Positions 11,177-58,000 of a stretch of DNA of 64,000 nucleotides are shown here, piece after piece. Position 1 is the stretch's first letter. Every line of letters begins with the position of its first letter. The stretch lies in NCBI GenBank assembly GCA_020637195.1, contig JACJWK010000002.1, forward strand, positions 2,299 to 66,298. Reading direction: 5' to 3'. A model generated the notes under the pieces. That model ran no database searches. It worked only from the letters and a program-made list of their open reading frames with translations, and was not told the origin of the DNA. This stretch comes from Microthrixaceae bacterium. Its GTDB lineage: Bacteria > Actinomycetota > Acidimicrobiia > Acidimicrobiales > DATDAH01. Made by a program: the position numbers and the translations under genes.

Positions 11177-13813
11177 ATGCGCCGGTCGACCACCACTTCC
11201 GGGATCGCCGTGGCCCTCGCCGCGCTCCTGGCCATGCCCGCGGCGCTCGCCCAGACCGGGCCGGGGGCCGACCCGGCCACGGAGCCCGCGCCCGCCGCGC
11301 ACGGGATGCAGGCCGTCGAGCAACTCGGTCCCCGGCTGGACGACGTCGCCCGCGACTACGGCATCAGCGAGAAGCGGCTCGAGTCGCTGCTGCTCACCGA
11401 CCCGACGCTGGCGGTCGATCCCGATGGCGAGCTGTTGTACGTCGACGAGCCCGCCCCGGGCGAGGGGGCCGGTCCCGCGCCCGAGGTGGACCCGGGCCCC
11501 GAGCCGGCGCCGCCGACCGACGACGCGGTGTTCGAGCTCCACAGCCTCCCCGGCGCGAGCCACGTGATCTACCTCGACTTCGACGGCAGCACCACCACGG
11601 GCACGAGCTGGAACTCGTCGAGCGGCATCGACCCGATCGTGTCGCCGCCCTACGACCTCGACGGGTCACCGGACTCGTGGTCGGCCACCGAGCTGTCCCG
11701 CATCGGCCTCGTGTGGGCGTACGTCGCCGAGGACTTCGCGCCGTTCGCGGTCGACGTCACCACGGAGGAGCCGCCGGTGGCCGACCTCCGGCGCAGCGGC
11801 GCCGGCGACGCGCGGTGGGGGGTGCGGGTCGTCGTCACCGACGACACCTGGGCGGACTGCGGCTGCGGCGGCCACGCCTACATCGGCTCGTTCGACGACG
11901 CCACCGACGAGCCCGTCTTCGTGTACAACAGCTCGCTCAGCGGGGTCAGCGAGGCCTCGTCCCACGAGGTGGGCCACTCGATGAACCTGGCCCACGACGG
12001 CAAGGGCACGTCGACCTACTACGGGGGCCACGGCTCCGGGACGACGAGCTGGGGCCCCATCATGGGCGCCGCCTACAACCGCTCGGTCACCCAGTGGAGC
12101 CGGGGCGAGTACCTCGACGCGACGAACAACGGCTCGTCGGCCAACTACGGCAACGGCCCCGACGACCTCGCCGTCATCGCCAGCCTCACCAACGGCAACG
12201 GGTTCGGCCTGCGCCCGGACGACCACGGCGACACGACGGCGACGGCGACGCCCTTGAGCGGGCTCACCCCGGTCGCCACCGGCCGCATTGGCACCACCGC
12301 GGACGTCGACGTGTTCCGCTTCACGACGGGGGCCGGGCCGGTCACGGTCCAGGTCGACCCGTTCCTGCCGGTGAAGAACCTGGACGTCCGCGCGCAACTG
12401 CTCGACCAGGGCGGCGGGGTGGTGGCCGTGTCCGACGGCGCCGCCACCCTGTCGGCCGGCTTCACCCAGACGCTGCCCGCCGGGACCTACTACGTGACGG
12501 TGGAGGGCACCGGCGTGGGCGATCCGTTCGCCGCGTCGCCGACGGGCTACACGTCGTACGCCTCGCTCGGCCAGTACGCGCTGTCGGCCACCACGCTGCC
12601 GGTCCCGGCGGGGTCGATCTCGGGGACCGTCACCGACGACGGTTCGGGTGACCCGGTTGCGGGCGCGTGGGTGCTCGCGCTGGACACCGCCACCGGTGCA
12701 CCGGTGGCGGCGACGGCGGACGCGTCCGGCGCGTTCTCGGCGGTGGTGGGCCCCGGCACCCACCACGTGCTCACCCTCGACCCCTCCGGCACGCACGCCG
12801 GCGAGTGGTACGACGACCGGGCCCTCGACGGCGACCCGACGCCGGTGGACGCCGGCGCCTCCGGTCTCGACATCGGCCTGGCGCCCGCCGGCGCCACCGC
12901 GTCGGTGTCGGGGGTGGTCACCGACGCGGCGACGGGCCAGCCCCTGCCCGGCGTGTGGGTGGCCGCCGTGGGTCCCTTCCCGGACTCGGCGGCGCTCGCC
13001 GGCGGCACGCAGACCGATGCGTCCGGCCGATACACCATCAGCGGACTCGAGGCGGGCGACCACCTCCTCGCCTTCATCGACCCCGCTCGGGACCACGCCG
13101 TCGAGTTCCACGACGACGCCGCGGTCCCGAGCGGGGCGACGCTCGTCCCGCTCTCGCCGGGCACGACGGCGACCGCGGACGCGGCGTTGGCGCCGGTGGC
13201 GGCCGGCGCCCCGGGCACGGCACCGCTGACCGGCCGGGTCACCGCGACGGGAACGGGTGCGCCCATCGAGGGGGCCTGGGTGGTCGCCCTCGACAGCACC
13301 GGCACCGTCGCCGACGCCACGGTGACCGACGCAGCCGGCGACTACGCGCTGGCCGTCGTGCCGGGGGGCTACTTCGTCGAGTTCGTCGATCCGACCGCCA
13401 CCCACCGCGGCGAGTGGAACCTCGACCACCCCACCCAGGACCTGGGGGCCGCGGACCAGGTGGTCGTCGGGCCCACCGGCGCCGTCGTCGACGCCGACCT
13501 CGACCCGGCCGGGCCCACCGCGGCGCTGAGCGGCACCGTGACCGGGGTGGGCGGCCTCCCGGTGCCCGGCGCGTGGGTGGTCGTGCTCGACCCGGCCACC
13601 GGCGGCCTGGTGAAGGGCGCGGTCACCGGGCTCGACGGCAGCTACACCGTCGGCGGGTTGCGGACCGGCCCGGTCGTCGTCGCCTTCCTCGACCCCTCCG
13701 GGGTGCACGCGCTCGAGTACCACGACGGCGCGGCCGGCTTCGGTCAGGCCGACCCCGTCGCGCTCGTGGCCGGATCCACCACGGCCGTGTCGGCCACGCT
13801 CGACCCACCCTGA
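11177..13813 (+). CDS. secreted zinc metalloprotease (metzincin-like) with PPC domain and four CarboxypepD_reg-like repeats
   Basis: Signal peptide MRRSTTTSGIAVALAALLAMPAALAQ. Zinc motif HEVGHSMNLAHD. Pre-peptidase C-terminal-like segment (DDHGDTTATATPL...DVDVFRF...YYVTVEG). Four ~100-aa repeats begin near 12610, 12899, 13226 and 13526 (e.g. SGTVTDDGSGDPVAGAWVLALD). Confidence 0.85.
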   Translation: MRRSTTTSGIAVALAALLAMPAALAQTGPGADPATEPAPAAHGMQAVEQLGPRLDDVARDYGISEKRLESLLLTDPTLAVDPDGELLYVDEPAPGEGAGPAPEVDPGPEPAPPTDDAVFELHSLPGASHVIYLDFDGSTTTGTSWNSSSGIDPIVSPPYDLDGSPDSWSATELSRIGLVWAYVAEDFAPFAVDVTTEEPPVADLRRSGAGDARWGVRVVVTDDTWADCGCGGHAYIGSFDDATDEPVFVYNSSLSGVSEASSHEVGHSMNLAHDGKGTSTYYGGHGSGTTSWGPIMGAAYNRSVTQWSRGEYLDATNNGSSANYGNGPDDLAVIASLTNGNGFGLRPDDHGDTTATATPLSGLTPVATGRIGTTADVDVFRFTTGAGPVTVQVDPFLPVKNLDVRAQLLDQGGGVVAVSDGAATLSAGFTQTLPAGTYYVTVEGTGVGDPFAASPTGYTSYASLGQYALSATTLPVPAGSISGTVTDDGSGDPVAGAWVLALDTATGAPVAATADASGAFSAVVGPGTHHVLTLDPSGTHAGEWYDDRALDGDPTPVDAGASGLDIGLAPAGATASVSGVVTDAATGQPLPGVWVAAVGPFPDSAALAGGTQTDASGRYTISGLEAGDHLLAFIDPARDHAVEFHDDAAVPSGATLVPLSPGTTATADAALAPVAAGAPGTAPLTGRVTATGTGAPIEGAWVVALDSTGTVADATVTDAAGDYALAVVPGGYFVEFVDPTATHRGEWNLDHPTQDLGAADQVVVGPTGAVVDADLDPAGPTAALSGTVTGVGGLPVPGAWVVVLDPATGGLVKGAVTGLDGSYTVGGLRTGPVVVAFLDPSGVHALEYHDGAAGFGQADPVALVAGSTTAVSATLDPP

Positions 13814-30016: not shown

Positions 30017-31473
30017 CGGGAGGCCTCCTGGGTCGGGGTCGACGCGGTGGGCAGCGTGAGCTCCACCGTGCCGGTGACGTGGGCCCCGAGGCCGTTGGCG
30101 CCCTGGAGGGCGACGACCACCGCACCCGTGGCCGGGTCGACGGACTGCACCGAGCCGGAGAAGGCCAGGATGTCGCCGGGGTGGTTGGGGGCGCCGAGGC
30201 GGACCCGCAGCGCCCGCACGACCGCGTCGGGACCGGCCCAGTCGGTGACGTAGCGCTCGGTCAGCCCGAGGGTGGTGTTGATGTTCATGAAGACGTCCGG
30301 CGAGCCCGCCCGGACGGCGGCGTCCCGGTCGTGGTGCACGTCGGTGAAGTCCCGGGTGGCGAGGGCGCCCGCCACGATCAGCGTCGTGGTGACCGGGACC
30401 GCGAACAGCGGCAGGGCGTCGCCCTCGGCGACGTCCGCCGCGGCGAGCGTGGCCTCCCGGCGGGGCGGTGTGGCGGGGCGGAACTGCGGGAGCGTGATCG
30501 GGCCGCGGGCGTCGGTCTCACCCTCCACCTGGGCCGGGTGGCTGTCGAGCCAGCACACCTCGAGGGGCATGCCCACCGAGAGCTGCTCCCGGGTGACCCC
30601 CACGACGTTGGACACCAGCCGGGCGCCCTCCTCGAGCTCGACGAGGCCGACCAGCACCGGGTAGCGGAACCCGCGCACCTGGGGGTACCGGGGGACGGCG
30701 AACGAGTAGAGGTGCCCGCGACCGGACGCGACGATCCAGCCCTGGTCGAAGCTGCCGCAGTCGGGGCAGCGCGGCGTGGGCGGGTTGTGCAGGGCCTGGC
30801 AGCCCCGGCACTGCTGGATGCGCAGCTCGTGGCGGCGGGCCCCCTCCCAGAAGAACTCGTTGTCGAGGTTGATGGCGGGACGCGGCCGCAGCGCGGGGTC
30901 CGGGTCGGGGGGTGGGGGCGCGCCCTCGCCGGGCCCGGGCGCGGGCCGACCGGTGCCGGGCTTGAACTTCAGGACCCGGAACAACAGGTCACCGACGTGC
31001 TCGCCGTCGGCCGTCGAGTAGCGGTGGCGGGTGGTGACGAAGTGCCCGACGCCGAGACCCGTGGCCTTCTCCTCGGAGACGGCGTCGAGGATCTCGACGT
31101 TGGACAGCAGCTCGCCCGGCCGGACGTAGCGCCGCAGCTCGAGCTCGGAGTTCACCGCCACCACCGAGGTGAACCCCGCCGCCTCGAGCAGCGCCAGCGC
31201 CCGGCCCCGCGGGCTGTCGGCGCTGCGGGCGTGCTTCAGCCCGCCCCGGTCCCAGATGTCGAGCGTGGCCGGTGGGGCGACCAGGCCGCCGTGGACCGAC
31301 GCCGCGGCCGCGTCGGGGTCGACGTACACGGGATGGTCGTCTCCCATGGCGTCGCACCAGTGCGCGACGAGGGTCTCGTCCACCGGGTGCCGCGGCGTGG
31401 TGGGCGGGCCCTCGGTGCCGACGAGGGCCCGGAGCGCGGCCAGCAGGTCGTCGGGCTCGGTCGTGTCGGTCAC
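30013..31473 (-). CDS. hotdog(MaoC N-terminal-like)-DUF35(Zn-ribbon+OB-fold)-hotdog(MaoC-like) fusion protein
   Basis: N-terminal segment HPVDETLVAHWCDAMGDDHPVYVD...HFVTTRHRY. Middle segment CRGCQALHNPPTPRCPDCGS plus an OB-like LYSFAVPRYP...LVGLVELEEGARLVSNV. C-terminal segment ATRDFTDVHHDRDAAVRAG...GDILAFSGSV. Confidence 0.8.
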   Translation of the reverse strand: MTDTTEPDDLLAALRALVGTEGPPTTPRHPVDETLVAHWCDAMGDDHPVYVDPDAAAASVHGGLVAPPATLDIWDRGGLKHARSADSPRGRALALLEAAGFTSVVAVNSELELRRYVRPGELLSNVEILDAVSEEKATGLGVGHFVTTRHRYSTADGEHVGDLLFRVLKFKPGTGRPAPGPGEGAPPPPDPDPALRPRPAINLDNEFFWEGARRHELRIQQCRGCQALHNPPTPRCPDCGSFDQGWIVASGRGHLYSFAVPRYPQVRGFRYPVLVGLVELEEGARLVSNVVGVTREQLSVGMPLEVCWLDSHPAQVEGETDARGPITLPQFRPATPPRREATLAAADVAEGDALPLFAVPVTTTLIVAGALATRDFTDVHHDRDAAVRAGSPDVFMNINTTLGLTERYVTDWAGPDAVVRALRVRLGAPNHPGDILAFSGSVQSVDPATGAVVVALQGANGLGAHVTGTVELTLPTASTPTQEASR

Positions 31474-31576
31474 GGGGCTCCTCGTGGTCGGACGGGCGGG
31501 CTCTCGATCCTGTCACGGCCGCGCCCCCCGGATCGCGGTCCGGGCACCGCCGACCGCGACTCGGTACGGTGCCGGA

Positions 31577-32557
31577 ATGGCCCGCGCTGCCGGGGGCGAG
31601 TCGAGGGCGGGCGTGCCCCTCACGAACCTGGACCAGCCGCTGTTCGACGGGGCCGACGCCACCAAGCGCGACCTCGTCGACTACCTCGACGGCGTCCGCG
31701 GGCGCCTGCTGCCCGTCCTCGCCGAGCGGCCGTTGTCGGTCGTGCGGGTGCACCGGGGCCAGGACGCCTTCATGCAGAAGAACGTCCCGAGGGGCACGCC
31801 GGAGTGGGTGCGGACGGTGGGCCTCTGGGCCGAGACCTCGAAGCGGGAGGTCCACTACGCCGTGTGCGACGACCGCCGGACCCTCGTGTGGCTCGGGAAC
31901 CAGCGCGCGGTCGAGCTGCACCCGTCGATGGGCCGCCTCCCCCACCTCGACCGGCCGACCCACCTGGTCGTCGACCTCGACCCGCCCGAGGGCGACGGCT
32001 TCCGCGCCGCGGCGGCGGTCGCCCACCTGGTGCGGCGGGTGCTGGACGACGCCGGCCTCGCCGGCGCGGTCAAGACCAGCGGTGCCAAGGGCCTGCACGT
32101 CTTCGTCCCCGTGTCGTCGTCGGTCGACGGCGCGTCCGCGGCCGCCGCGACCCGGGCCCTCGCGGCGCGGGTCGAGCGCCTCGACCCCTCGCTCGCCACC
32201 ACGGCCTTCGTGAAGGACGAGCGCGGGGGCAAGGTGTTCGTCGACGCCACCCGCGGCGCGGGCTCCACGGTGGTCGCGGCGTACAGCCCCCGCCTGCGGC
32301 CGGGCGTGCCGGTGTCGTTCCCGGTGGCGTGGGGCGATCTCGACGACGTGGCGCCCGGTGACTTCACGATCCACGGCGCGCTCGACCGGCTGGGCGACCG
32401 CGACCCCTGGTCCGAGGCGATGCCCGAGCCCCAGGCGCTGCCCGACGACCTCGTCGTCGAGGGGAGCGAGATCCCCGCCCCGCGCGTGGCGGCCCTGCAC
32501 GAGGGCCGGCGGCGGGCGCGCCGCGCCCGGGACGGCGGCGGGTCGGCCCGCCCCTAG
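31577..32557 (+). CDS. stand-alone NHEJ polymerase/primase domain (LigD PolDom-like)
   Basis: TNLDQPLF...KRDLVDYL, HLVVDLDP, KTSGAKGLHVFVP, YSPRLRPGVPVSFPVAW. There is no ligase or nuclease domain in the ORF. TACGGT box 6 nt before ATG 31577. Confidence 0.85.
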   Translation: MARAAGGESRAGVPLTNLDQPLFDGADATKRDLVDYLDGVRGRLLPVLAERPLSVVRVHRGQDAFMQKNVPRGTPEWVRTVGLWAETSKREVHYAVCDDRRTLVWLGNQRAVELHPSMGRLPHLDRPTHLVVDLDPPEGDGFRAAAAVAHLVRRVLDDAGLAGAVKTSGAKGLHVFVPVSSSVDGASAAAATRALAARVERLDPSLATTAFVKDERGGKVFVDATRGAGSTVVAAYSPRLRPGVPVSFPVAWGDLDDVAPGDFTIHGALDRLGDRDPWSEAMPEPQALPDDLVVEGSEIPAPRVAALHEGRRRARRARDGGGSARP

Positions 32558-32603
32558 GCTGCGGACCGACCGGTCACGGACCGGGTGCGAGAGGAGCGAA
32601 CAC

Positions 32604-42568: not shown

Positions 42569-43567
42569 ATGGCCCTCCCCGAGACCGACACCACGCTGGA
42601 CCTCGAGCCGTTCCGCCGCGAGCTGACCGGCTACTGCTACCGGATGCTGGGGTCGGGCTCGGAGGCCGAGGACGCCGTCCAGGAGACGATGGTGCGCGCC
42701 TGGCGCAACGCCGATCGCTTCGAGGGGCGTTCCAGCCTGCGGACCTGGGTGTACCGCATCGCCACCAACGTGTGCATCGACATGAGCCGCCAGGTGCAGC
42801 GCCGCGCCCGGCCGATGGAGCTCGGGCCGTCGTCGCCGCCCGACGAGCGGCTGCTCGGGCCGCCCACGCCCGAGGCGATGTGGGTGACGCCGATGGCGGA
42901 CGACCGCGTCGCGCCGGAGACATCGGACCCGGCCGACGTGGCCCACCACCGCGAGACGATCCGCCTGGCCTTCGTCACCGCGCTCCAGCACCTCCCCGCC
43001 AAGCAGCGGGCCGCCCTGATCCTCTGCGAGGTCCTGCGCTGGCCGGCGGCCGAGGCCGCGGAGCTGCTCGAGACGACCGTGGCGTCGGTCAACAGCGCAC
43101 TGCAGCGGGCGCGGGCGACCATGGCGTCGCTGCCCGACCCGTCCGCCCACCCCGTCGACCTCGGCGACGTCGACGCCGCCCTGCTCGCGCGCTACGTCGA
43201 CGCCTTCGAGCGCTACGACATCGAGACGCTGGTGACCCTGCTGCACGAGGACGCCATCCAGTCGATGCCCCCGTTCGAGCTCTGGCTCCAGGGGGCCCGC
43301 GACATCGGCGCCTGGATGGTCGAGCCGGGGCCGAGCGGGTGCCGGGGCTCGCGCCTGGTGGCGACCCGGGCCAACGGGTGCCCCGCGTTCGGCCAGTACC
43401 GCCCCGACCCCGCCGGCGGGTGGGCGCCGTGGGCCATCCAGGTGCTGCACGTGTCAGGCGGGCGGATCGCCGAGATGAGCTTCTTCCTCGACCTGCTCGA
43501 CCCCGGCCGGGTGTTCCCCGAGTTCGGGCTGCCCGCCCACCTCGACGCATCGCCACTCGACGGATAG
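42569..43567 (+). CDS. ECF sigma factor with SnoaL-like C-terminal domain (SigJ/SigG-type)
   Basis: Region 2 DAVQETMVRAWRNADRF...WVYRIATNVCID. Region 4 LPAKQRAALILCEVLRWPAAEAAELL. C-terminal NTF2-like extension. Confidence 0.85.
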   Translation: MALPETDTTLDLEPFRRELTGYCYRMLGSGSEAEDAVQETMVRAWRNADRFEGRSSLRTWVYRIATNVCIDMSRQVQRRARPMELGPSSPPDERLLGPPTPEAMWVTPMADDRVAPETSDPADVAHHRETIRLAFVTALQHLPAKQRAALILCEVLRWPAAEAAELLETTVASVNSALQRARATMASLPDPSAHPVDLGDVDAALLARYVDAFERYDIETLVTLLHEDAIQSMPPFELWLQGARDIGAWMVEPGPSGCRGSRLVATRANGCPAFGQYRPDPAGGWAPWAIQVLHVSGGRIAEMSFFLDLLDPGRVFPEFGLPAHLDASPLDG

Positions 43568-43816
43568 GGACAGGCCCGCCAGCTCCACGAGCTCGCGGAG
43601 CTCGGGCCGCGCCTCCTCGACCATCAAGCGGGCGCCGCGGCGTCGAGCCACCAGCGCCAGCCGGGCCACGACGTCGACCGCGTCGAGGTCGGGTGGGCCG
43701 AAGCCGCGCAGCGTGCGTCGTGCCACCACGCGCCCGTCGGGCGTCACCACCCGCAGGCGGCACCAGGGTCGGGGTGCGGCCACGAGAGAGGGACGGCGCC
43801 CACCGCCGTCGCTCAT
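43454..43816 (-). CDS. small STAS-like (anti-sigma-antagonist-like) protein, tentative
   Basis: ATG 43816, 6 nt after GAGGTG. ...PPDLDAVDVVARLALVARRRGARLMVEEARPELRELVELAGL... resembles small actinobacterial STAS-domain proteins (from memory). The 3' 114 nt run antisense through the end of the sigma gene. Confidence 0.4.
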   Translation of the reverse strand: MSDGGGRRPSLVAAPRPWCRLRVVTPDGRVVARRTLRGFGPPDLDAVDVVARLALVARRRGARLMVEEARPELRELVELAGLSLSVEWRCVEVGGQPELGEHPAGVEQVEEEAHLGDPPA

Positions 43817-43846
43817 CGGTGACACCTCGGGTCCTACGGTGGCCCG

Positions 43847-44575
43847 GTGGCCGAGCGCGACCTCTACCTGCACGAGGTGATCGACATCGTCGGGCAGGGC
43901 CAGTACGAGTACATGGCCCACGCCGCCCGCGAGCCGACGAACGCGATGCCCGACATGCTCACGCTCCAGGGCACGTTCTTCGTGTGCGCCGTCGGCGGTG
44001 GGCGCTGGCCCCAGGTCGTCAACCTCTGGGACGTGGGCGAGGCCGGCTGGGACGGCTGGGCCGCCAACGTCGACCGCCTCAACCTGAAGCGGCGCGCGGC
44101 CTTCTACGGGGACTGGTGGGACGAGGCCGCCCAGTGGCGCACCGGCGGACTCGACCGGCTGTGCGGCGGCGTGGCGGGCAGCCCGACGACCGCGTCGCTC
44201 GCCGCCGCCGGGGTGCGGGGCACGCTGTTCGTGCACCAGCTGCTGACGGTGCGCCCGGGCGCGGCCCTCGACTACCTCGACGCCGTCGTCGCCGAGCAGG
44301 TGCCCGTGTGGCGTGACCACGGCCACGAGCCGACCGGGATCTACGAGGTGCTCTCCAACCAGCACGAGGTCGTGGTGGTCTGGGCGACCTCGATCGCGGC
44401 GCAGACCGGGTTGCGGCGGTCCCGTGACGCGCCCGGGGGCTCCTGTCCGGCCAGGCGGGTGCGCCTGAGGGCGACGAGCGCCTCGTGGCCTGGGAGCGCA
44501 CCGCCGCCGAGTACGTCACCGGCGGCGACACTCCACCCCATGACCCCATGCCCGGCACCGCTCCATAGCCCCTGA
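43847..44575 (+). CDS. hypothetical protein (possibly NIPSNAP/dimeric alpha-beta-barrel-like); 3' end appears frame-disturbed
   Basis: TACGGT box 6 nt before GTG 43847. The sequence is protein-like up to about aa 190 (...VVVVWATS...). After that the called frame becomes Arg/Ser/Pro-rich, while another frame reads ...GDERLVAWERTAAEYVTGG... Confidence 0.5.
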   Translation: MAERDLYLHEVIDIVGQGQYEYMAHAAREPTNAMPDMLTLQGTFFVCAVGGGRWPQVVNLWDVGEAGWDGWAANVDRLNLKRRAAFYGDWWDEAAQWRTGGLDRLCGGVAGSPTTASLAAAGVRGTLFVHQLLTVRPGAALDYLDAVVAEQVPVWRDHGHEPTGIYEVLSNQHEVVVVWATSIAAQTGLRRSRDAPGGSCPARRVRLRATSASWPGSAPPPSTSPAATLHPMTPCPAPLHSP

Positions 44576-44626
44576 CGACTGGGAAGAGGCCGACCTCGCC
44601 GACTGGCTCGGGTGAGGCAGCGGACA

Positions 44627-44674
44627 CGTTCTGGCTCCCCGATTTCGGTGCCAGGGCACCGAAATCGGAGCCAG
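44627..44674. repeat. palindromic element copy 1 (core GATTTCGGTGCC-AG-GGCACCGAAATC at 44641-44666)
   Basis: Read directly from the sequence. The 26-nt core is identical to 54446-54471. Outer arms CTGGCTCC/GGAGCCAG extend the stem. Confidence 0.9.
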
Positions 44675-44799
44675 TCCGGTGGACGGTGACGGATCGGTCG
44701 GGCCGGTTCCGGCCGACGGCACCGCAGGCGCCGCCGACGAGCAGGGGCTGGCGGTCGGCGTCGTCCTGGGGCCGTGGTTGCGCGCGCCGGTGCCGGTCG

Positions 44800-45474
44800 C
44801 CGGAGGCCGCCGACCGCGCCGGCGTGGCAGCAGTACCGGACGATGTAGGCCTTGCGGACCGTGCCGGTGGTGTTGACCCGGGTGGCGTGGGGCTGGTTGA
44901 CGAGAACACCACGACGTCGCCGGCGCTCGTGGGCACGTCGACCGCGGTGTCGTGGTCACCCCAGCACTCGAAGCCGATCGGCGTGTCGGCGTGGGCGAGG
45001 GGCCGCTGTCGCGGTGGGCGCCGGCGGCATGACCGACACGCAGCCGTTCTCGGGGTGGCGTCGGTGAGCGACACCCAGAAGGTCAGGTACGCCTGGGGCC
45101 TCGATGAACGTGTAGCTGTCCTGGTGCCACAGCACCGGCTCGGCGCCGTGGGGCACCTTGTAGACGGCCTGCTCCCAGTAGAGGCGCACGTCGTCGCCCA
45201 TGAGGTCCCGGCAGACCCCGGCGAGGACCGGGCTGCGGCAGAACGCCTTGGCGGCCCCGGAGCGCAGCACGACGTGCGGCGCGACCACCTGGGTGTCGAG
45301 CCCGGCGACCGAGAGGCGCCCGCCCTCCACCTGCTCGAGCAGCCCGGCGACGAGCTCGACCGCCTCGTCGCACGCCGCCTCGACCGGGGCCAGCTCGTCG
45401 GGGGTGAAGGCGCCCCGCAGCACGAAGAAGCCGTCCCGGTCGAACTGCCGGCGCTGCTCGTCGGTGATCGTCAT
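44800..45474 (-). pseudogene. phytanoyl-CoA dioxygenase (PhyH)-family Fe(II)/2OG oxygenase, multiply frameshifted
   Basis: ATG 45474 (MTITDEQRRQFDRDGFFVLRG...WHQDSYTF). The rest is readable only by hopping between all three frames: YLTFWVSLTDATP / ENGCVSVMP / GAHRDSGP / LAHADTPIGFECWGDHDTAVDVPTSAGDVVVFSS / ...HATRVNTTGTVRKAYIVRY. The 3' end is undefined. Confidence 0.75.
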
Positions 45475-45789
45475 CGGCGCCCGGTCGGGCAGCGCCCACG
45501 TGAACCCGTCGTTCCACCGATGGGGCGCTCGCTCCCGGGCCACGCGGTCACCGTAGCGACCCGGCGGCGGTGCTCATGGGTGCGGATGGTCGGCCTGCCG
45601 ACGGTGACGACCTGAGCACCAGCGCCGCTGGGCGGCGACCCTGGCCAAGGTCATGATGTGGGGGTACGTTGCGCTGACCGGCGTCGATCGTCGAACCTTC
45701 GATCGCCGCACGGCTCGAAGCCCGGTGCTTCCGCGAGGCCCCCGACCCGGGAGGCCCGCTCGTCCGACCTGACGAGAAGGAGGCACGAC

Positions 45790-46164
45790 GTGCCCAGCAT
45801 CGACGACCTGTCCCTGCCCGGCGACCCCGACTTCCCGGCCGAGGCGTTCTCGGTCGGCTGCGACGGCGACCTGGTCGAGCGGCGCTGGCTCGGCGGCGAG
45901 CCGTACTACGTCCACCACATGGACGTGCCGCCGTCCGACATCACGGTGCACCGGGGCATCCCGTGCACGACGCCGATCCGCGCCGTGATCGACATCGCCT
46001 GCGACACCGAGCCCGACCACCTCGACGCCGTCATCGGCGACTGCCTGGGGAGGGGGCTGTTCACCGTCGAGGAGGCCTGGCACCGCCTCGGCCAGCCCGA
46101 CATGGCCCAGCGCCACGGCGCCGAGATCGTCCGCCAGGCCCTCCGTCGGCTCGGCCTCGGTTGA
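45790..46164 (+). CDS. AbiEi-antitoxin-like/DUF559-associated N-terminal domain fragment protein
   Basis: Strong SD AAGGAGG 6 nt before GTG 45790. ...ITVHRGIPCTTPIRAVIDIACDTEPDHLDAVIGDCLGRGLFTVEEAW... resembles the middle of AbiEi-type/DUF559-linked proteins, but only about 124 aa are present. Confidence 0.45.
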   Translation: MPSIDDLSLPGDPDFPAEAFSVGCDGDLVERRWLGGEPYYVHHMDVPPSDITVHRGIPCTTPIRAVIDIACDTEPDHLDAVIGDCLGRGLFTVEEAWHRLGQPDMAQRHGAEIVRQALRRLGLG

Positions 46165-46397
46165 TATTCGAGTGGCTTCCGATGCCGGACGAGGTGTGGT
46201 CGCGGGCCCTCGAGCTGCAGCGCGCCGTCAGCGCACGGGGCCGGCTCCGGTCGGCGCGCCTCCCGGACCTGCTGATCGCCGCGACCGCCGAGCGCCACGG
46301 CGTGACGGTGCTGCACTACGACGCGGACTTCGACCTGCTCGCCGAGGTGTCCGACCTTCGGGCCGAGTGGGTCGTTCCCGCCGGCTCGGTGCCGTGA
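46161..46397 (+). pseudogene. N-terminally truncated PIN-domain VapC toxin remnant
   Basis: ...DEVWSRALELQRAVSARGRLRSARLPDLLIAATAERHGVTVLHYDADFDLLAEV...WVVPAGS is the C-terminal about 60% of a VapC. The N-terminal acidic-residue strand and any VapB partner are missing. Confidence 0.6.
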
Positions 46398-51344: not shown

Positions 51345-52988
51345 CTACTTCCGGGCCAGGCGCTCGGCCACCTCGAGGCGCTTCTCGAGCTGGCGCACCG
51401 TGGCCTCCGAGATCCGTCCCACGCCCGACAGGCGGTTGAGCTCGGCGTTCACCTGCGCGTGGGTCTGGCCGGTGCGGCGCACCAGCACCGCGACGATCTC
51501 GGCGTTGCGCTCGCGGAGCCGACGCTTCTGCTGGCTGCGGGTGCGGGCCGTCGCCGCGTCGTCGTCGCCCAGCGCGGCCCGCGCGTCGGCCAGGAACCGC
51601 CGGTCACCGGCCAGTGGCGGCGGCGGGCCGAGGTCGATCAGGAGGCTGTCGTCGTCGCCGACGTCGAGATCGTCGTCGACGTCGTCGCCGCTCTCGAACG
51701 GAGCGTGCGTCTGGTGCTCGGTGGCCACCGCCGACAGCGCGGCGAACAGCGACATCTGCTCCTCGACGCCCGGGTCGAGGGCGGCCGGGTCGCGCTCGGG
51801 GCGATCGACCGCGCGCTTGGCCAGGCTGTGGCGGCGCTGGTCGGCGATCTGGAACGCCCGGGCCCGCAGGCGCGGGTCGTCGGGGATGAACAGGTACGCC
51901 TTCTGGTCCACGACGCCCGGCGTCCACCGCACGAAGCGCCCGACCGCCTGGCGGAAGAACAGCTCGGTGGTCGTGGTGGTGGCGTACACGCCCACCCGCA
52001 GCCGGGGGATGTCGACGCCCTCGGACACCATGCGCACCGCCACGAGCCAGGGGGCGGTGCCCGCGGCGAACCGGGCGATCGCCGCGGACGCGTCGGGGTC
52101 GTCGGAGGTGACCACCACCGCCGGGCGATCGAAGCGTCGTTGCAGGAGGTCGGCGACGCCCCGGGCGTGGTCCTGGTCGATGGCGATCACGAGGCCGGCG
52201 GCGTCGGGTTGGCGCTCGCGCACGGCGTCGAGCTGGGCCACGGCCTGGCGCAGCACGGTGGGGAGCCACTCACCCTCGAGGGAGAGCGCGGTGCGGAGGC
52301 GCTGGCTGGCGCGCGTCTGGTCGAGCGCGTCGTCGAAGGTGGCCTCGTGGATCGCACCGTCGGGTGCCGTCCACTCCATGTGGCCGCCGGTGCGGGGGAA
52401 GTAGACGGGGCGCACCACCCGGCGGTCGGCCAGGGCCTCGCTGTAGCCGTACTCGAAGTCGGGCACGGCCTCGTCGGCCACGTAGGTGACGAACGGGATC
52501 GCCCGGGTGTCGCTGCGGAACGGCGTGCCCGAGATGCACAGCCGGCGGGGCGCGCGCTCGAAGGCGGCGCGGATCGAGTCGCCCCACGCCCGGTCGTCGC
52601 CGGCGTGGTGGATCTCGTCGAACACCACGAAGGCCCGCTCGGCGAGCCCCGACAGCACCGCGGCGCTGCTCGCCACCTGCTGGTAGGTGGTCACGATGCC
52701 GTGCATGTCCGCCGGCAGGCGCCCGTCGGTGGCCGCCCAGGCCGGGTCGAGGTGGATGCCGAACGGCGCGGCGGCCCGCTCCCACTGGACCTTCAGGTGG
52801 GCGGTGGGCGCCACCACGACGACGCGGCGCTCGGGGTGCTCGGCGAGGACGTGGCGCGCCGCGGTGAGCGCGAAGGTGGTCTTGCCCGCTCCCGGCGTGG
52901 CCACGGTGAGGAAGTCGGCGGCCTCGCTGGCCCGGAACTTCTCGAAGGCCACCTTCTGCCAGGGCCGCAGGCGGATGCGGCGGATCAT
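51345..52988 (-). CDS. SF2 DEAD/DEAH-box (res-subunit-like) helicase with acidic linker and basic helical tail
   Basis: Walker A ATPGAGKT, DEIH box VFDEIHHAG, SGTPFR, VRMVSEGVDIP, FRQAVGRFVR. The C-terminus has DDVDDDLDVGDDD followed by a Lys/Arg-rich helical segment. Confidence 0.85.
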   Translation of the reverse strand: MIRRIRLRPWQKVAFEKFRASEAADFLTVATPGAGKTTFALTAARHVLAEHPERRVVVVAPTAHLKVQWERAAAPFGIHLDPAWAATDGRLPADMHGIVTTYQQVASSAAVLSGLAERAFVVFDEIHHAGDDRAWGDSIRAAFERAPRRLCISGTPFRSDTRAIPFVTYVADEAVPDFEYGYSEALADRRVVRPVYFPRTGGHMEWTAPDGAIHEATFDDALDQTRASQRLRTALSLEGEWLPTVLRQAVAQLDAVRERQPDAAGLVIAIDQDHARGVADLLQRRFDRPAVVVTSDDPDASAAIARFAAGTAPWLVAVRMVSEGVDIPRLRVGVYATTTTTELFFRQAVGRFVRWTPGVVDQKAYLFIPDDPRLRARAFQIADQRRHSLAKRAVDRPERDPAALDPGVEEQMSLFAALSAVATEHQTHAPFESGDDVDDDLDVGDDDSLLIDLGPPPPLAGDRRFLADARAALGDDDAATARTRSQQKRRLRERNAEIVAVLVRRTGQTHAQVNAELNRLSGVGRISEATVRQLEKRLEVAERLARK

Positions 52989-55012
52989 GCGGCGTCGGCG
53001 GCGGGCTCGGTTCCGGCGGGGAGGGCGGGCGGAGCAAGTCGCTCAAGGTAGCGGCGGGTCGGGCCCGATCGGGACATGCCCGAGAGACACCGACCTTCCG
53101 CTCGGCGGGGCTCGGCATGGGTCAGGGGCGTCGCCGGCGGCGAGGGCGTCGGTGAGGCCGCTGGCCCGGGCGACGGGCGGGCGACGGCGGCCCGCACCGC
53201 GTCCTCGGTGCCGAGCACGGTGAGCCGGTGCTGCGCCCTCGTGACCGCGGTGTAGAGCAGCTCGCGGGTCAGCACCGGCGACGGCGGCCGGGGAGGCGCA
53301 CGACGACGTGGCCGAACTGCGAGCCCTGCGCCTTGTGGATGGTGATGGCGTACAGGAGTCGACCGCGGCCAGCCGCGTGGGCCGGACGAGCAGCGGCTCG
53401 CCCCGGCGCTCAGGCACGGCCTGGAGGCGCCCGCCGCCGACGTCGACGACCACCCCGGTGTCGCCGTTGAACACGCCGAGGCGTAGTCGTTCTCGGTCAC
53501 GATCAGCGGCCGGCCCGGGTACCAGGCGCCGGCGCCGTAGCCCGGGATCGTCGAGCGCAGCCAGCGCTCGATCGCCAGCCGCCACCTGGCGGCACCGGCC
53601 GGCCTGCGGCGGTGGGCGCAGAGCACCTGGACCTCGCTCAGGGCGGTGAGCGCACCCGGCGTCACCGGCCGAGGCGGCGGCGCGACCACCGAGCGGGCGG
53701 TGTCGACCGCACCGCACGGCGCGGAGCTCCGGGGCGGTGGTGGGGTCGGCGTCCGCCGACCTCCGCCACGTGACGTCGTCGCCGGCGGTCGCAGGGCGTC
53801 GACCACCGCGTCGGCGTCCCCCGACTCGATCGCGGCGGCGACGGTGGCGATGCCCCCGCCGAAGCGGTGCACGCGGCGCAGCTCGACGATGCCGGGCAGC
53901 GGCGACGCCACGATGTCGCCGAGGACGGCACCCGCCTCGACCGGGCGAGCTGGCGAGGTCGCCGACGAGGACCAGGCGGGCGGTGGGGCGCACCGCGTCG
54001 AGCAGGCGGGCCATGAGCGAGAGCCCGACCATCGAGCACTCGTCGACGATCACCACGTTGTGCGGGAGCTGGTTCGCCCGGTCGTGGCGGAAGCGGCTGC
54101 GGTGGTCGGGCCGCCATCCGAGCAGGCGGTGCAGCGTGGAGGTGGGCGTCGCCAACAGCGCGCCCGGACGGCCTCGCCGGTGTCAGGCGGCGGGCCTCCG
54201 CCTGCACCGCCTCGCCCAGGCGGGCGGCGCCTTGCCCGTCGGCGGCCAGTGCCACCCGGGGTGGTGGCTGACCGAGGGCGGCGGCCTGCTCGTGGAGCAG
54301 CGCCAGCAGGCGCGACCGTCGTGGTCTTGCCGGTGCCGGCCCGCCGGCGACCACCGAGAAGCGGCGCTCGACCGCGGTCGCCGCCGCGACCCGCTGCCGG
54401 TCGTCCTCCCCGCCCGAGATCGGCGTCCACCCTCCAACGGCTCCCGATTTCGGTGCCAGGGCACCGAAATCAGGGCCAGAACGGACGAGGAAGAGGCGGT
54501 CAGGCCGTCAGCCAGCGCAGCAGTGTCGACGGTGGGGCGGCCCGCCGGCGGGCGAGCAGGTCGGCGGTGATGGCCCGCTCGTGGCGCCAGTAGCGGTCGA
54601 GGTACAGGCGCGTGCGGCGAGGCGCAGCGGGCGGTCGTGGGCCCGCCGCCGCCCACCGCGGTGAGCGGGTGGGTGGCCCGCGGCGACCCAGGCGTCGGGG
54701 TCGGGCCAGGCGAGGGCGGCGACGTCGACGGCGACCTCCTCGTCCTCGGGGGCGATGGTGGTCGGCGCGGTGGCCAGGTCGGCGAAGACGTGGCCGGGCG
54801 CACGGCCCGCACGGCGAGCGCCGCGGCGGGCGACCTGTCCGTCGGGGTCCGAGCGCCGCCGGCAGGTCGGTGAGCGCCAGCGACGCGCACGTCGGCGGCG
54901 GCGAGGACGGTGGCGTCGCCCAGGGCCTGCGGAGCCCGGCGCCCACGGTGGGTCGCCGCCCGGCGTGGAGGTCGACGCCGCCGGCCGGCGTCGGCGGGGT
55001 CGCGGCGGTCAC
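52985..55012 (-). pseudogene. recD: RecD (exodeoxyribonuclease V alpha) gene, multiply frameshifted
   Basis: GTG 55012 forms a GTGA overlap with the recB stop. Motifs are scattered over three frames: RLYLDRYW, VVAGGP/GTGKTTTV/RLLALL, TLHRLLG, VVIVDECSMV, LVLVGD, VQVLCAHR, RLGVFNGDTGVV, YAITIHKAQGSQF, LLYTAVTRAQHRL. The 3' end could be 52985 or 53043. Confidence 0.8.
54439..54483. repeat. palindromic element copy 2 (core at 54446-54471), inside recD
   Basis: Identical 26-nt core GATTTCGGTGCC-AG-GGCACCGAAATC. The right outer arm AGGGCCAGAACG mirrors the left arm CGTTCTGGCTCC of copy 1. Confidence 0.9.
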
Positions 55013-58000
55013 AGGGCGCCCCGGTCGAGAGGTCGGAGAGGTCGGTGACGAAGGCCACCGGCGGCTGCCAGGTGAACACCCGGCGGGGCGCCGCCGACCC
55101 GCGGGGTGTCGGGGCCCACCATGCCCCGCAGGAACAGGTACGCCACGCCGCCGAGGTGGCGGCCCGGGTCGTACGCGGGGAGGCGCCACCGCAGGAACCG
55201 GTGCAGGCCACGCGTAGAGCGCCGCCTGCAGCGGTAGTGGGCGTCGGCCATGGCGGCGAGCGCCTCGGGACGGTAGTGGGCGGTCAAGCCGACCTCGCCG
55301 TGGGGCACCAGGTGGTTGGTCTTGTAGTCGACCACCACGTGGCGGGCGTCGCCCCCGGGCCCGTCGGCGAGGCGGGCGACGAGGTCGATCGAGCCGGAGA
55401 GGAAGCCTCGGACCTCGGCGGTGAGCAGCGGGTCGCAGAGGCGCTCGTGGTAGCCGGCCAGCGGGTCGCCGGCGGGCAGGCCCGCGAACACGTCGGCGAC
55501 GGCGGCCATGGTGACGAGCCGGTCGTGGGGCGGTCGCCGCCGGCGAGGGGCAGGTCGAAGGCGAGCTCGTCGAGTCGGTCGTGGCGGGTGAGGTCGCACA
55601 GGCGCGTCGTCCCAGGCCTCGCCCACGGCGTCCGCAGCGCCTGGGCGACGCCCGCGACCAGCGGGCTCGTGGCCCTCGACCAACCGTGGCGCACCGGCCT
55701 CGGTCGCCGCGACCAGCTCGGCGTCGAGGTCGGCGGCGGCGAAGTCGATCTGCTCCGAGCACCTCGTGCACGAGGGTGCCGACGCAGGCGCCGCGGGGAC
55801 GTCGGCGAGCGGTAGGCGCAGGGCCTCGGCGTCGGCGGCGGCGCCCTGACTCGAGCCAGGGCTCGTCGACCGTGGCCGCCTCCTCGCGCTCGGCGTCGGC
55901 GGCCGCCACTGGTGCCCTCGCCGCCCAGGTCACGCCCCAGGTCGACGTCGAGGCGGGGGCCGGTCTCGTGGGCCTCCCGCGTGAGGCCGCTGTAGGACGT
56001 CCGCACCCAGCAGCGGTCGAAGCCGCGATCGAAGCGGGCCACGGACAGGGCCGCCGCGTCGAGCGCCGGAGGGTCGTAGCGCTCGCCCGTCGCCCCCGTG
56101 GCCTCGACGGTGGGCAGCAGCCGGGCGGTGAGCTCGACGGTGATCTCGTCCTCGGTGGGCACGTGGTCGAGGCACCGGGCGACCGCTCCGGTGGCCGGGT
56201 CGGCGGCGAGCAGCACCCGGGCCAGCGGTGAGCGGTCGCTGTCGGAGGCGCTCGCCCACCAGGCGACCACGCGGTGGCGGGCCCGGGTCAGGGCCACGTA
56301 GAGCAGGCGCAGCTCCTCCTGGTCGCGCTCGTCCTCGGCGCGGTCGAGTTGCCAGCGGCGCAGGTCGCCGCCGCCGCCGACGCTGAGCGCCCGGTGGCCG
56401 TCGGTGTCGTGGAAGGTGCACACGTCGTCGTCGTCCTGGCGGCGGGCGTCCCAGAGGCTGGGCAGGAGCACGATCGGGAACTCGAGGCCCTTCGCGCTGT
56501 GGATCGTGTGCACGGCGACCGCGTCGGCATCGGTCTCCAGGCGCCGCCGGGCCGACTCGGCGCCGGACTCGGCGCCCGGCTCGGCGGCCGCGGCGCGCTG
56601 CTCCGCCACCCAGCCCGAGAGCGCGGTCAGCGACGACGGATGGTCGGCCTGGCGGGCGTGCAGCAGCTCGGCCAGGTGGCGCAGGTCGCTCAACAGGCGG
56701 TCGCCGCCGACCGTGCCCAGCAGCCGCTCGCTGAGGCGCGTGCCGGCTTCGACGCGTCGCAGCACGCCGGCCACCGTGTGGGCCCGCGCCGTGGCGGCCC
56801 AGTCGTGCAGGAGGGCGTCGAGCGCCTCCCAGTCGGCCTCGCGGGCGGCTGCCAGGCGCGCGGCGTCCCAGCCCACGAAGGGGCCGATGGCCACCGCGCG
56901 CACCCGGGCGGGGCGGGCCGGCTGCTCCAGCGCGTCGAGCAGCTCGCCCCAGTGGCGGGCGGCGTCGGTGCGCCACACGCTGCCGGCGCCGTGGACGACC
57001 GCGGGCACCCCGACGCCGTGCAGCGCGTCGCGGGACACGGTGGCCTCGTGGTGCGTGCGGGTCAGCACGGCCAGGTCGCCCGGCCCCACCGGTCGGCCGT
57101 CGAGGGTGCTCCCGCTGTTGAGCAGGCGCACGGCCTCGGCCGCGAGGTCCTCGGCGAGGAAGGCCCGCACGGCGCCCTTCGCGGCGACCCGGGTCCTCTT
57201 GGTCAGGGCGAACCGCCCGCTGTCGTTGCGGGCCACCTTGACGAGCAGCGGCGGCCCGGCGGCGGGACCGTCGAGGCCGGGGCCCTCGGCCCCGGGCCGG
57301 GCCTGGACCGGTCGGTGGCGGATGGCTTCGTCGCCGAGCTGGGCACCGGCGAGCACGGCGTCGAGCGCGGTCAGCAGCGGCCGGTCGGCCCGCCAACTCG
57401 TCGACAGGCCGCTCCGGTGGTCGGCGCGCCGGGTGGCGGCGAGGTAGGCGTGCACGTCGCCGCCGCGGAAGGCGTAGATCGCCTGCTTGGGATCGCCGAC
57501 GAGCACGAGCCGGCAGGGCGGCTCCCCGAAGGCCCGCTCGAGGATCCGCCACTGGATGGTGTCGGTGTCCTGGAACTCGTCGACCACCGCCATCGAGAAG
57601 CGGGCCCGCAGGCGCTCGGCCACGATGTCGCCGCGGCGACCCTCGGCCAGGCTGGCGTCGAGGCGGTCGAGCAGGTCGTCGTAGGTGAGGAGCCGACCCT
57701 CGCGCTTCTGGTCGGCGATGCGGGCCCGCACGGCGCGGGCGAAGGCGCGCCGCTGGCGATCGACGGGGTGGTCGTCCACGGGGGCGATGGCGCAGTCGGG
57801 GTGCTCGACCACCGCCCGGGCGATGGCGGCGGCCGTGCCCGGCTCGAAGTGGATCTCGTCGCCGGCCAGGACCCGGCGCACGTAGAGGTCGCGGACGGCG
57901 TCGTCGACGAGGTCCCGCACGTCCTCGACGAGCTCGACGTCGCGCTCGGCGTCGCCGGCCACTCCGAGCCCGGCCAGCACCTGCTGGCAGAAGCCGTGGG

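Follow-up and report, generated by a model that had tools for sequence, protein, structure and literature searches.

To our knowledge, a cognate enzyme is known for only one class of dispersed palindromes, the REP and REPIN repeats with their RAYT transposases; we know of no partner for the CGTC-tagged REPs, of no dedicated protein for the Rickettsia palindromic elements (RPEs), which are 100-150 nt long, and of no partner gene described for TRIT. REPs lie 3' of genes and occasionally inside them, including inside a repair gene (Di Nocera et al., PMC3733652). TRIT, reported from Mycobacterium only, is a bidirectional palindromic hairpin with about 150 copies (RNIE paper, PMC3152330); its predictions coincide with few mapped 3' ends, and its terminator activity is itself doubtful. 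Here we analyse a 64-kb stretch of DNA from a Microthrixaceae bacterium (the window, by which we mean this whole stretch; base composition 75% G+C) that carries two solo copies of a dispersed palindrome of about 52 nt and no partner gene: copy 1 occupies a typical site at the 3' end of a gene, and copy 2 is an insertion in recD. We give a probability of roughly 60% to the reading that the family is a REPtron-like system with a partner other than RAYT, in which solo repeats are served by a cognate AbiEi-DUF559 nuclease that would either spread them or home to them.

The two copies share the 26-mer GATTTCGGTGCCAGGGCACCGAAATC, which matches exactly at 44641-44666 and at 54446-54471 and forms perfect 12-bp arms around a 2-nt loop, just as the initial annotation had described for both sites. 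At up to three mismatches the window contains no further site, self-complementary reads of these two aside, and none of 100 dinucleotide-preserving shuffles contains the 26-mer, for which the chance expectation is 0. The outer arms said to extend the stem are also present. Copy 1 (44627-44678, plus strand, solo, polarity plus) is a palindrome of about 52 nt that reads CGTTCTGGCTCCCC GATTTCGGTGCC AG GGCACCGAAATC GGAGCCAGTCCG, and copy 2 (54434-54483, minus strand, solo, with degenerate outer arms) reads CGTTCTGGCCCT GATTTCGGTGCC CT GGCACCGAAATC GGGAGCCGTTGG, its outer arms on the plus strand being CCAACGGCTCCC...AGGGCCAGAACG. A flank, GGTGGACG, is common to both: it lies at 44679-44686 on the plus strand, where it is the G-rich side of a weak outer inverted repeat CCACCC...GGGTGG around copy 1, and at 54424-54431 as the complement (CGTCCACC on the plus strand). 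When the flanks are aligned, copy 2 fits copy 1 better on the opposite strand, with CGTTCTGGC on one side and GGTGGACG on the other. The shared flank noticed earlier is real, but a match to GGTGGACG appears only on the minus-strand reading of copy 2, so that the two copies are mutually inverted and not direct repeats. Despite this inversion, the 2-nt loop reads AG on the plus strand in both copies.

A covariance model made solely from copies in other genomes agrees on the inverted orientation and recognises exactly two sites in the window, with 67 and 54 bits. Copy 1 is matched at 44623-44682 (66.9 bits on the plus strand, 58.7 on the minus) and copy 2 at 54430-54487 (53.5 bits on the minus strand, 46.6 on the plus), and the next-best match, at 22 bits, is an unrelated 58-nt hairpin at 13080-13137. 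Both copies are far more stable than their shuffles, whether folded as RNA (-42 and -41 kcal/mol for copies 1 and 2 on the better strand, with z of -4.5 and -5.5) or as DNA (z about -6.5 for both).

A scan for GATTTCGGTGCCNNGGCACCGAAATC over one genome per prokaryotic species found 75 exact-core sites in 72 stretches with unrelated flanks, all in five metagenome-assembled genomes (MAGs) of Acidimicrobiales: 26 in SH_SHASGE3bin.30 (JAYRFK), 32 in Microthrixaceae binchicken_co27_450 (CAZYPY), nine in an Iamiaceae MAG (CAYTJS), seven in MAG_AAO_AS.63 (JBGAOY) and one in CAYYDZ. Further scans added 61 sites in 55 stretches of metagenome contigs, whereas viral contigs contained no copy of the exact core. 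The window itself is not among the MAG or metagenome loci retrieved (denoted L below). A covariance model, R1, built from the 75 MAG copies adds about 18 diverged copies within 510 kb of loci. Thus the palindrome is indeed a dispersed REP- or MITE-like repeat, as had been supposed, and its abundance in related genomes rules out a single occurrence, an adapter sequence or a coding segment kept by conservation. The initial annotation had recognised no named family in it, and we find none either: Rfam 15 has no matching family (E up to 10, noise aside), and the searchable literature yielded no relevant paper with the motif and no published description of the family.

The unit of the family is 52 nt long and has abrupt ends, outside which the information content is about 0. 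Its consensus is CGTTCTGGC[TCCC]GATTTCGGTGCC-NN-GGCACCGAAATC[GGGA]GCCAGTTCG, or, over all subfamilies, CG-WW-CTGGC-[TCCC/ACCG/CCTG]-GATTTCGGTGCC-NN-GGCACCGAAATC-[GGGA/CGGT/ACCG]-GCCAG-WW-CG. The outer flanks are C-rich on the left and G-rich on the right (0.2-0.4 bit), often in the form CCACCC...GGGTGG, and the GGTGGACG of the window is the G-rich outer arm that recurs around family members. Three subfamilies are set apart by compensatory stem changes: A has CTCCC/GGGAG, B has CACCG/CGGTG, and C, from the Iamiaceae MAG, is asymmetric; the hairpin foot CTGGC/GCCAG is invariant across all variants, while the inner stem is rewritten. Measured against the consensus, copy 1 has one additional C in its left arm and lacks one G in its right arm. 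The ancestral palindrome that had been reconstructed from the two window copies stands in outline, but each of its arms is one base short (CTCC/GGAG instead of CTCCC/GGGAG), and its right terminus AACG is only a minority form, the usual form ending in TTCG.

The termini break the symmetry of the palindrome in a conserved way. In 54 of the 75 copies, one strand reads TT at either end (CGTTCTGG...CCAGTTCG), so that the hairpin contains a 2x2 T:T mismatch, or A:A if the opposite strand is folded. Fully paired TT...AA termini occur in 14 copies, nine of which belong to subfamily C, and the opposite fully paired form, AA...TT, occurs in none of the 75 MAG copies; among the 59 metagenome copies scored, 39 are of the TT/TT type, nine are TT...AA and one is AA...TT. 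The loop dinucleotide, in contrast to this, is AG in 31 and CT in 32 of the 75 copies and bears no relation to terminal polarity, which would fit frequent inversion of the loop between the perfect arms. A conserved asymmetry in a near-perfect palindrome is what one would expect from the copying of a master sequence together with recognition of one strand; selection on the hairpin alone would not yield it.

The 785 genes called from the loci were clustered all against all. No recurrent transposase emerged near the copies, only ordinary paralogous families and a DUF559 family, and the sole unusual recurrent family is this protein of about 304 amino acids. Its gene has copies of the element on both flanks at L033, L016/L132, L012, L081 and L059, which represent three unrelated neighbourhoods. 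With the protein as query, seven more homologues (45-65% identity) were collected at loci L134-L140, which were chosen without regard to the element, and the covariance model places element variants on both sides of the gene in all seven; below E 0.05, these loci otherwise yield only two marginal matches, both in L140 and both of about 13 bits. A generic inverted-repeat finder run on L138-L140 missed diverged elements that the covariance model detected. In total, the gene is bracketed in 12 of the 12 loci examined, in at least six distinct chromosomal contexts (mscS/modE, MBL/FAD oxidoreductase, SnoaL/hydrolase, YajQ/HAD, sucA/M20 and ABC/baeRF), and the flanking variant is the one that is dispersed in the same genome: A in JAYRFK and CAZYPY, B in JBGAOY and C in CAYTJS. 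Across the variants, both members have changed in 17 of the 24 stem pairs; pairing holds in 86% of cells, compared with 28-46% in slid controls, and none of 500 shuffles reaches the covariation score.

In the bracketed unit, one or two elements are followed by a start-site inverted repeat, the gene and then a second element; L136 and L137 alone show tandem pairs of elements, in both cases upstream of the gene. The inverted repeat GCTTCCCC...GGGGAAGCC-ATG (or GTG), with 20-27 nt between its arms, is conserved just upstream of the nuclease start (L033:1560-1602, L016, L134, L135, L012 and L081), and in L136, L137 and L059 element copies lie inside the loop of this hairpin. As its sequence suggests, it would pair the ribosome-binding site with an upstream anti-Shine-Dalgarno segment and so sequester it, an arrangement that recalls the translational repression of some transposases. 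At the other end of the gene, the final codons and the stop (CGT TCT GGC xCC TGA, that is R-S-G-x-stop) usually come from the 5' arm of the downstream element, and an R-S/T-G-x C-terminus encoded by this arm is shared by at least 22 of 38 homologues. Many contigs with nuclease homologues are only 1-2.5 kb long, as would be expected if assemblies break at the flanking repeats.

In Pfam the protein matches DUF559 above the cut-off and AbiEi_4 and MTES_1575 weakly. An AF2 model (pLDDT 88) gives Foldseek matches to AbiEi (6Y8Q, E 5e-6) and to the catalytic domain of the homing endonuclease I-Bth0305I (3R3P, E 9e-4); the first 200 or so residues of the model match the AbiEi antitoxin (6Y8Q) and Rv2827c, and D237, E248, H255, D260 and D264 are invariant in the nuclease domain. 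According to the model, the protein is an AbiEi-like winged-helix DNA-binding module fused to a Vsr/DUF559 nuclease domain of the PD-(D/E)xK type. The Vsr fold is known from the literature in T:G mismatch nicking and in homing endonucleases (PMC3239194 for the homing endonuclease), and the searchable literature yielded no link between DUF559 or AbiEi-type nucleases and dispersed palindromes.

Family members lie preferentially behind genes. With neighbour genes defined by a caller based on G+C content at third codon positions (GC3), 58 of the 69 copies that have genes called on both sides adjoin at least one gene 3' end; among these 69, both neighbours point rightwards in 21 cases and leftwards in 17, they converge on the element in 20 and diverge from it in four. 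The element mostly starts 4-35 nt after the stop codon (median about 13 nt), and within the loci a copy is present in 28% of convergent, 14.5% of tandem and 5.8% of divergent intergenic regions (chi-square p 0.003), whereas the polarity of the element shows no relation to the direction of the neighbouring gene. The consensus is without a stop codon in all six frames, so naive open reading frames (ORFs) run through the element, and three of the five copies called "inside" genes are artefacts of such stop-free ORFs crossing it. In L032 the element overlaps the 3' end of a ribD-like ORF. At L034:1006-1057 (the same locus as L091:3583) it stands in frame in the linker between the KS and AT domains of a large polyketide synthase gene, to which it contributes about 17 residues, PAPDFGARAPKSGAS, while the coding frame and the GC3 signal continue on both sides.

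Copy 1 had been placed between convergent 3' ends, where a bidirectional terminator would be expected, and its position bears this out. Its upstream neighbour is a conserved hypothetical gene (43847-44615, plus strand) for a protein of about 255 amino acids, whose homologues end in ...GPDDWE.A.LDDWL; the window encodes this C-terminal ending in a third frame, after two frame changes in the last 60 or so codons, which places the true stop, a TGA, at 44613-44615, and copy 1 begins 11 nt past it. A gene for a PhyH-like dioxygenase (44690-45543, minus strand, 3' end approximate; PF05721, E 1e-8), the 3' half of which is frame-broken, converges on copy 1 from the other side. In a relative, L077 (a short-read contig with 85% identity over 43190-44848), the upstream gene is intact and is followed by the orthologous element with arms of consensus length, and three other relatives have different downstream neighbours and no element at this site. 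The expectation of a terminator is, however, a positional analogy only: in the 75-copy alignment there is no T/U tract 3' of the stem, and positions +40 to +50 are G-rich and not enriched in T. Because no run of T follows the stem, the element is not a canonical intrinsic terminator; mycobacterial RNA polymerase, according to PMC3993855, requires a U-tract at intrinsic terminators.

Beyond the PhyH-like gene, an ORF at 45,616-46,397 has no Pfam match, and after it a different frame encodes the C-terminal portion of a PIN domain (PF01850, E 5e-8); together they may be a split VapC-type toxin gene. We considered this AbiEi-like ORF as a local partner of the element and rejected it, as Pfam finds no DUF559 in it, the PIN domain lies downstream, and tblastn finds no nuclease homologue in the window.

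The other copy had been assigned to a coding region, and comparison with a relative shows what happened there. Two minus-strand ORFs, 62050-58370 and 58385-55284, align with the RecC and RecB genes of L074, and downstream of them lies a recD-like gene for the alpha subunit of exodeoxyribonuclease V (52985-55284, minus strand, ends approximate). Its RecD motifs (GGPGTGKTTTVARLLALL, PTGKAAARL and VIVDECSMV) are spread across 55284-52988 in all three frames, it contains many frame changes, and copy 2 lies in its N-terminal part. The closest recD homologue, P0001 (77% identity), is on a 620-kb contig, fetched as L074, which runs colinear with the window to either side of copy 2 (L074 21-5953 with window 60481-54489, and L074 5961-7234 with window 54414-53163) and about 67 nt net shorter there. 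The block 54415-54488 (minus strand), which is the element with about 10 nt on each side within the recD frame, is present in the window and absent from L074, where the covariance model finds no element and where DGLARLFPGAAGDD corresponds to DGLTA-[insert]-PISGGEDD of the window. Copy 2 is thus an insertion in recD for which L074 provides the empty site. It was probably an insertion into a recD that was already non-functional, since in the window the reading frames of recD and of the 3' end of recB are broken, and in L074 the gene calls split these genes into fragments; alternatively, the sequence in this stretch is poor. As a separate observation, the 120 best RecD matches are all only 155-378 amino acids long, even on contigs of 0.6-2.4 Mb, which suggests that recD is often called as fragments in high-GC actinobacterial assemblies.

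Frame changes cluster at 44,450-45,080 and 52,988-56,000, where they affect the conserved hypothetical gene, the PhyH-like gene, recD and the 3' end of recB, and the rest of the window codes cleanly. They resemble single-base length changes in runs of C or G, often in compensating pairs; examples are GGGCC-GGCACC for GGGCCCGGCACC in the Walker A motif of recD, and ACTCCACCCCATGACCCC in the hypothetical gene. The departures of copy 1 from the consensus, C4 for C3 and G2 for G3, are of the same kind. Both the frame changes and these arm lengths may be sequencing errors near strong hairpins, or they may be real decay in pseudogenes.

Two larger structures suggested by the placement of the copies were discarded. 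The copies, 9.8 kb apart and inverted, do not bound a composite transposon, as their flanks are independently colinear with L077 (copy 1) and with L074 (copy 2, empty); nor are they attL and attR of an island, given the independent synteny of each copy and the dozens of solo copies in the family. A tblastx comparison of the window with the loci for orthologous contexts was swamped by compositional matches at high GC and was set aside.

The family as a whole is mobile or, at a minimum, is gained and lost. Filled and empty orthologous intergenic sites are seen at L031:593-644 (empty in L021), L015:3764-3815 (empty in L002) and L002:291-342 (empty in L015), and copies are kept at orthologous sites across species in the pairs L048/L049, L014/L062, L025/L027 and L028/L067. 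One orthologous convergent site is occupied by this element in CAZYPY and by the palindrome of a second repeat family in JAYRFK. That second family, CGTTCCTCCAGCAGAAACGGAAGG-loop-CCTTCCGTTTCTGCTGGAGGAA, is found in the same MAG (L034:7647-7700, L042:3811-3865, L050:2795-2850 and L019:~4379), likewise begins with CGTTC and occurs at gene ends. One might take the TT...TT that encloses the 46-nt perfect palindrome for a 2-bp duplication, yet conserved, mutually complementary CG/CG and CCACCC/GGGTGG lie outside it; a target-site duplication of either 4 bp (GTTC) or 2 bp (TT) is therefore unsupported, the more so as subfamily C has TT...AA.

The elements can themselves be targets. A 2.8-kb element of the IS21 family (L016:2527-5305, also L132) sits exactly in the loop of the copy 3' of a nuclease gene, a site at which a sister species keeps an intact copy (L033:2503-2554). 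It encodes IstA, with rve and Mu-transposase C-terminal domains, and IstB, has the ends TGTCAACGG.../...CCGCCGACA and is flanked by a CTGGAG duplication. In other bacteria, insertion sequences target the loops of REPs.

How might such a system work? By analogy with RAYT and REP, we infer that the nuclease is the cognate protein of the element. The enzyme would bind and cut at the conserved foot of the palindrome, presented to it as a duplex, a cruciform or a single-stranded hairpin. From this point there are two options: the nuclease may spread the element to new sites, or the dispersed elements may be landing sites for the nuclease's own gene, in the style of a homing endonuclease. Once inserted 3' of a gene, a strong hairpin would be tolerated, and it may even protect the 3' end of the transcript or hinder read-through between convergent genes, as has been proposed for REP and TRIT. 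A more specific version, in which the repeat is propagated by a winged-helix/Vsr-like PD-(D/E)xK nuclease with a repeat-bracketed gene and a repeat-supplied stop, and the T:T mismatches beside CTGG/CCAG are a possible cleavage signal, is put forward tentatively, at somewhat less than even odds.

Several points weigh against a nuclease-driven system. Binding, cleavage and mobilisation by the nuclease are all read from sequence patterns, and bracketing would also be expected if the elements worked for the gene, as its operators or terminators, and not the reverse. The covariation fits a DNA or RNA hairpin and a pair of half-sites co-evolving with a dimeric protein alike. Five of the 12 gene loci were found through the element, which leaves only seven independent samples. 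There is no nuclease homologue in the 64-kb window by tblastn, and CAZYPY has subfamilies A and B, while only one nuclease gene is seen in it. The mutual orientation of the flanking copies varies (direct in L033 and L012, inverted in L135), and no target-site duplication or clean junction could be defined, the intergenic flanks of filled and empty sites being too diverged.

There are other explanations, of which one, that the palindrome is a host-selected RNA element of gene 3' ends (a TRIT-like terminator or an mRNA-stabilising hairpin) whose copies are immobile and whose link to the nuclease is incidental, we regard as unlikely. It would account well for the median distance of about 13 nt past stop codons, the enrichment at convergent sites, the great stability of the hairpin on both strands, the orthologous retention (L048/L049, L014/L062, L025/L027, L028/L067 and window copy 1/L077) and the different palindrome at the same convergent site in a sister species, a pattern also seen in mycobacterial TRIT (PMC3152330). 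Yet the element has G-rich flanks and no T/U tract, such as mycobacterial polymerase is reported to need (PMC3993855), and TRIT predictions themselves overlap few mapped 3' ends. Nor does RNA function explain the unpaired TT/TT in 54 of 75 copies or the near-identical 52-mers at dozens of unrelated loci, and it fits poorly with copies in coding sequence, with presence and absence that differ among close relatives and with the bracketing of one nuclease gene in 12 of 12 cases. A role in RNA 3' ends may instead describe a secondary, acquired function. Rather improbable is the idea that the AbiEi-DUF559 gene is a selfish, homing-type gene that settled on pre-existing palindromes which spread by other means. 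The similarity of its nuclease domain to a homing endonuclease (3R3P; PMC3239194), its presence in at least six contexts that are all typical element sites at gene ends, and the full copies on both sides, as repair from an element-gene-element donor would leave them, all speak for it, but it leaves the multiplication of solo copies and the homogeneity of variants within a genome unexplained. Since in both cases a protein recognises the element, it is barely separable from the REPtron-like system that we favour.

Still less probable is a classical REP or REPIN moved by a RAYT encoded elsewhere in the genome. The insertion sequence exactly in the loop of one copy recalls the targeting of REPs by insertion sequences. 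Short palindromic extragenic repeats in tens of copies, 3' of genes and occasionally intragenic, including in a repair gene, are likewise typical of REPs (PMC3733652); here, however, there is no GTAG or CGTC tag, the palindromes are single, about 934 kb contain no match to RayT, and the bracketed gene has a different fold. Finally, an artefact, be it a leftover of an adapter or vector, a product of faulty assembly or a palindrome that arose by chance, can hardly be entertained: homopolymer-type frame changes do cluster beside both window copies, but independent assemblies, produced by different projects with different technologies, contain the same 52-mer in unrelated contexts, L077 carries an orthologous copy, and 100 shuffles gave no match.

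Two features of the window lie apart from the palindromes. Four direct repeats of about 300 nt at 12,775-13,735, 67-76% identical to a reference copy, lie within a large ORF (~11,200-13,813) and presumably represent a repeated protein domain. The 1.1 kb at 31,473-32,589 has no GC3-called gene amid dense coding.

The family described here has a clear anatomy and a strong candidate partner from a different enzyme superfamily, and the partnership is seen repeatedly and independently in uncultured Acidimicrobiales, including MAGs of Microthrixaceae and Iamiaceae. If a REPtron-like system with a nuclease partner is the correct reading, the spread and persistence of palindromes outside the RAYT class would become testable with one protein and one oligonucleotide, and part of the large, uncharacterised DUF559 family would acquire a function. 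In practice, too, the family matters: short-read assemblies appear to break at the repeat, the repeat can stand in frame inside genes, and the stop-free stretches that it creates mislead ORF finders in high-GC genomes.

Compared with the REP/REPIN-RAYT systems, the likeness is considerable: both have a short imperfect palindrome in tens of copies, mainly extragenic and 3' of genes but sometimes intragenic, variants specific to each genome, one repeat-bracketed gene per system, and a conserved unpaired feature in the hairpin. The differences are equally clear. The consensus ends in CGTTCTGGC and GCCAGTTCG, with no GTAG or CGTC tag at either end; the copies are single 52-nt palindromes and not the inverted doublets of REPINs; the bracketed gene encodes an AbiEi-like winged helix-turn-helix and a Vsr/DUF559 PD-(D/E)xK domain instead of an HUH tyrosine transposase; and REPtrons are Proteobacterial, whereas the hosts of this family are Acidimicrobiales (Actinomycetota). 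Searches with E. coli RayT (NC_000913.3) by phmmer and jackhmmer gave no match even at E 10 among all six-frame ORFs of at least 70 amino acids in the 574 and 360 kb (934 kb) around 136 copies.

The TRIT hairpins, as described, resemble the element in behaviour and not in sequence. Both are hairpins of conserved sequence in a high-GC actinobacterial host, within a narrow range around stop codons and without a classical U-tail, but TRIT is centred about 8 nt inside the coding sequence, as against a median of about 13 nt past the stop here. A canonical intrinsic terminator shares the hairpin and differs in the immediate U-rich tract that is absent here. RPEs and intragenic REPs are found in frame inside genes, including those for recombination and repair (PMC3733652), and the polyketide synthase linker of L034 and recD with window copy 2 are their counterparts in this family; RPEs, however, are tagged by CGTC and belong to a different phylum. 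Like MITEs such as Correia, Nezha and RUP, the element is small, non-coding and dispersed, has inverted-repeat symmetry and is polymorphic in presence and absence. Unlike them, the entire element is one 52-nt hairpin and no target-site duplication is seen, nor is there a parent insertion sequence sharing its ends, the only one nearby being the IS21-family element (IstA/IstB), which has TGTCAACGG ends and lies inside a copy.

For the partner protein, the closest described relatives are the EDxHD/Vsr-like homing endonucleases such as I-Bth0305I, together with DUF559. The fold of the C-terminal domain is the same, the acidic and histidine residues are kept, and in the homing endonucleases, too, the nuclease is fused to a sequence-specific DNA-binding module. 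I-Bth0305I, however, sits in a group I intron of a phage recA, whereas the gene described here is free-standing and chromosomal, carries a binding domain of the AbiEi type and is bracketed by palindromes.

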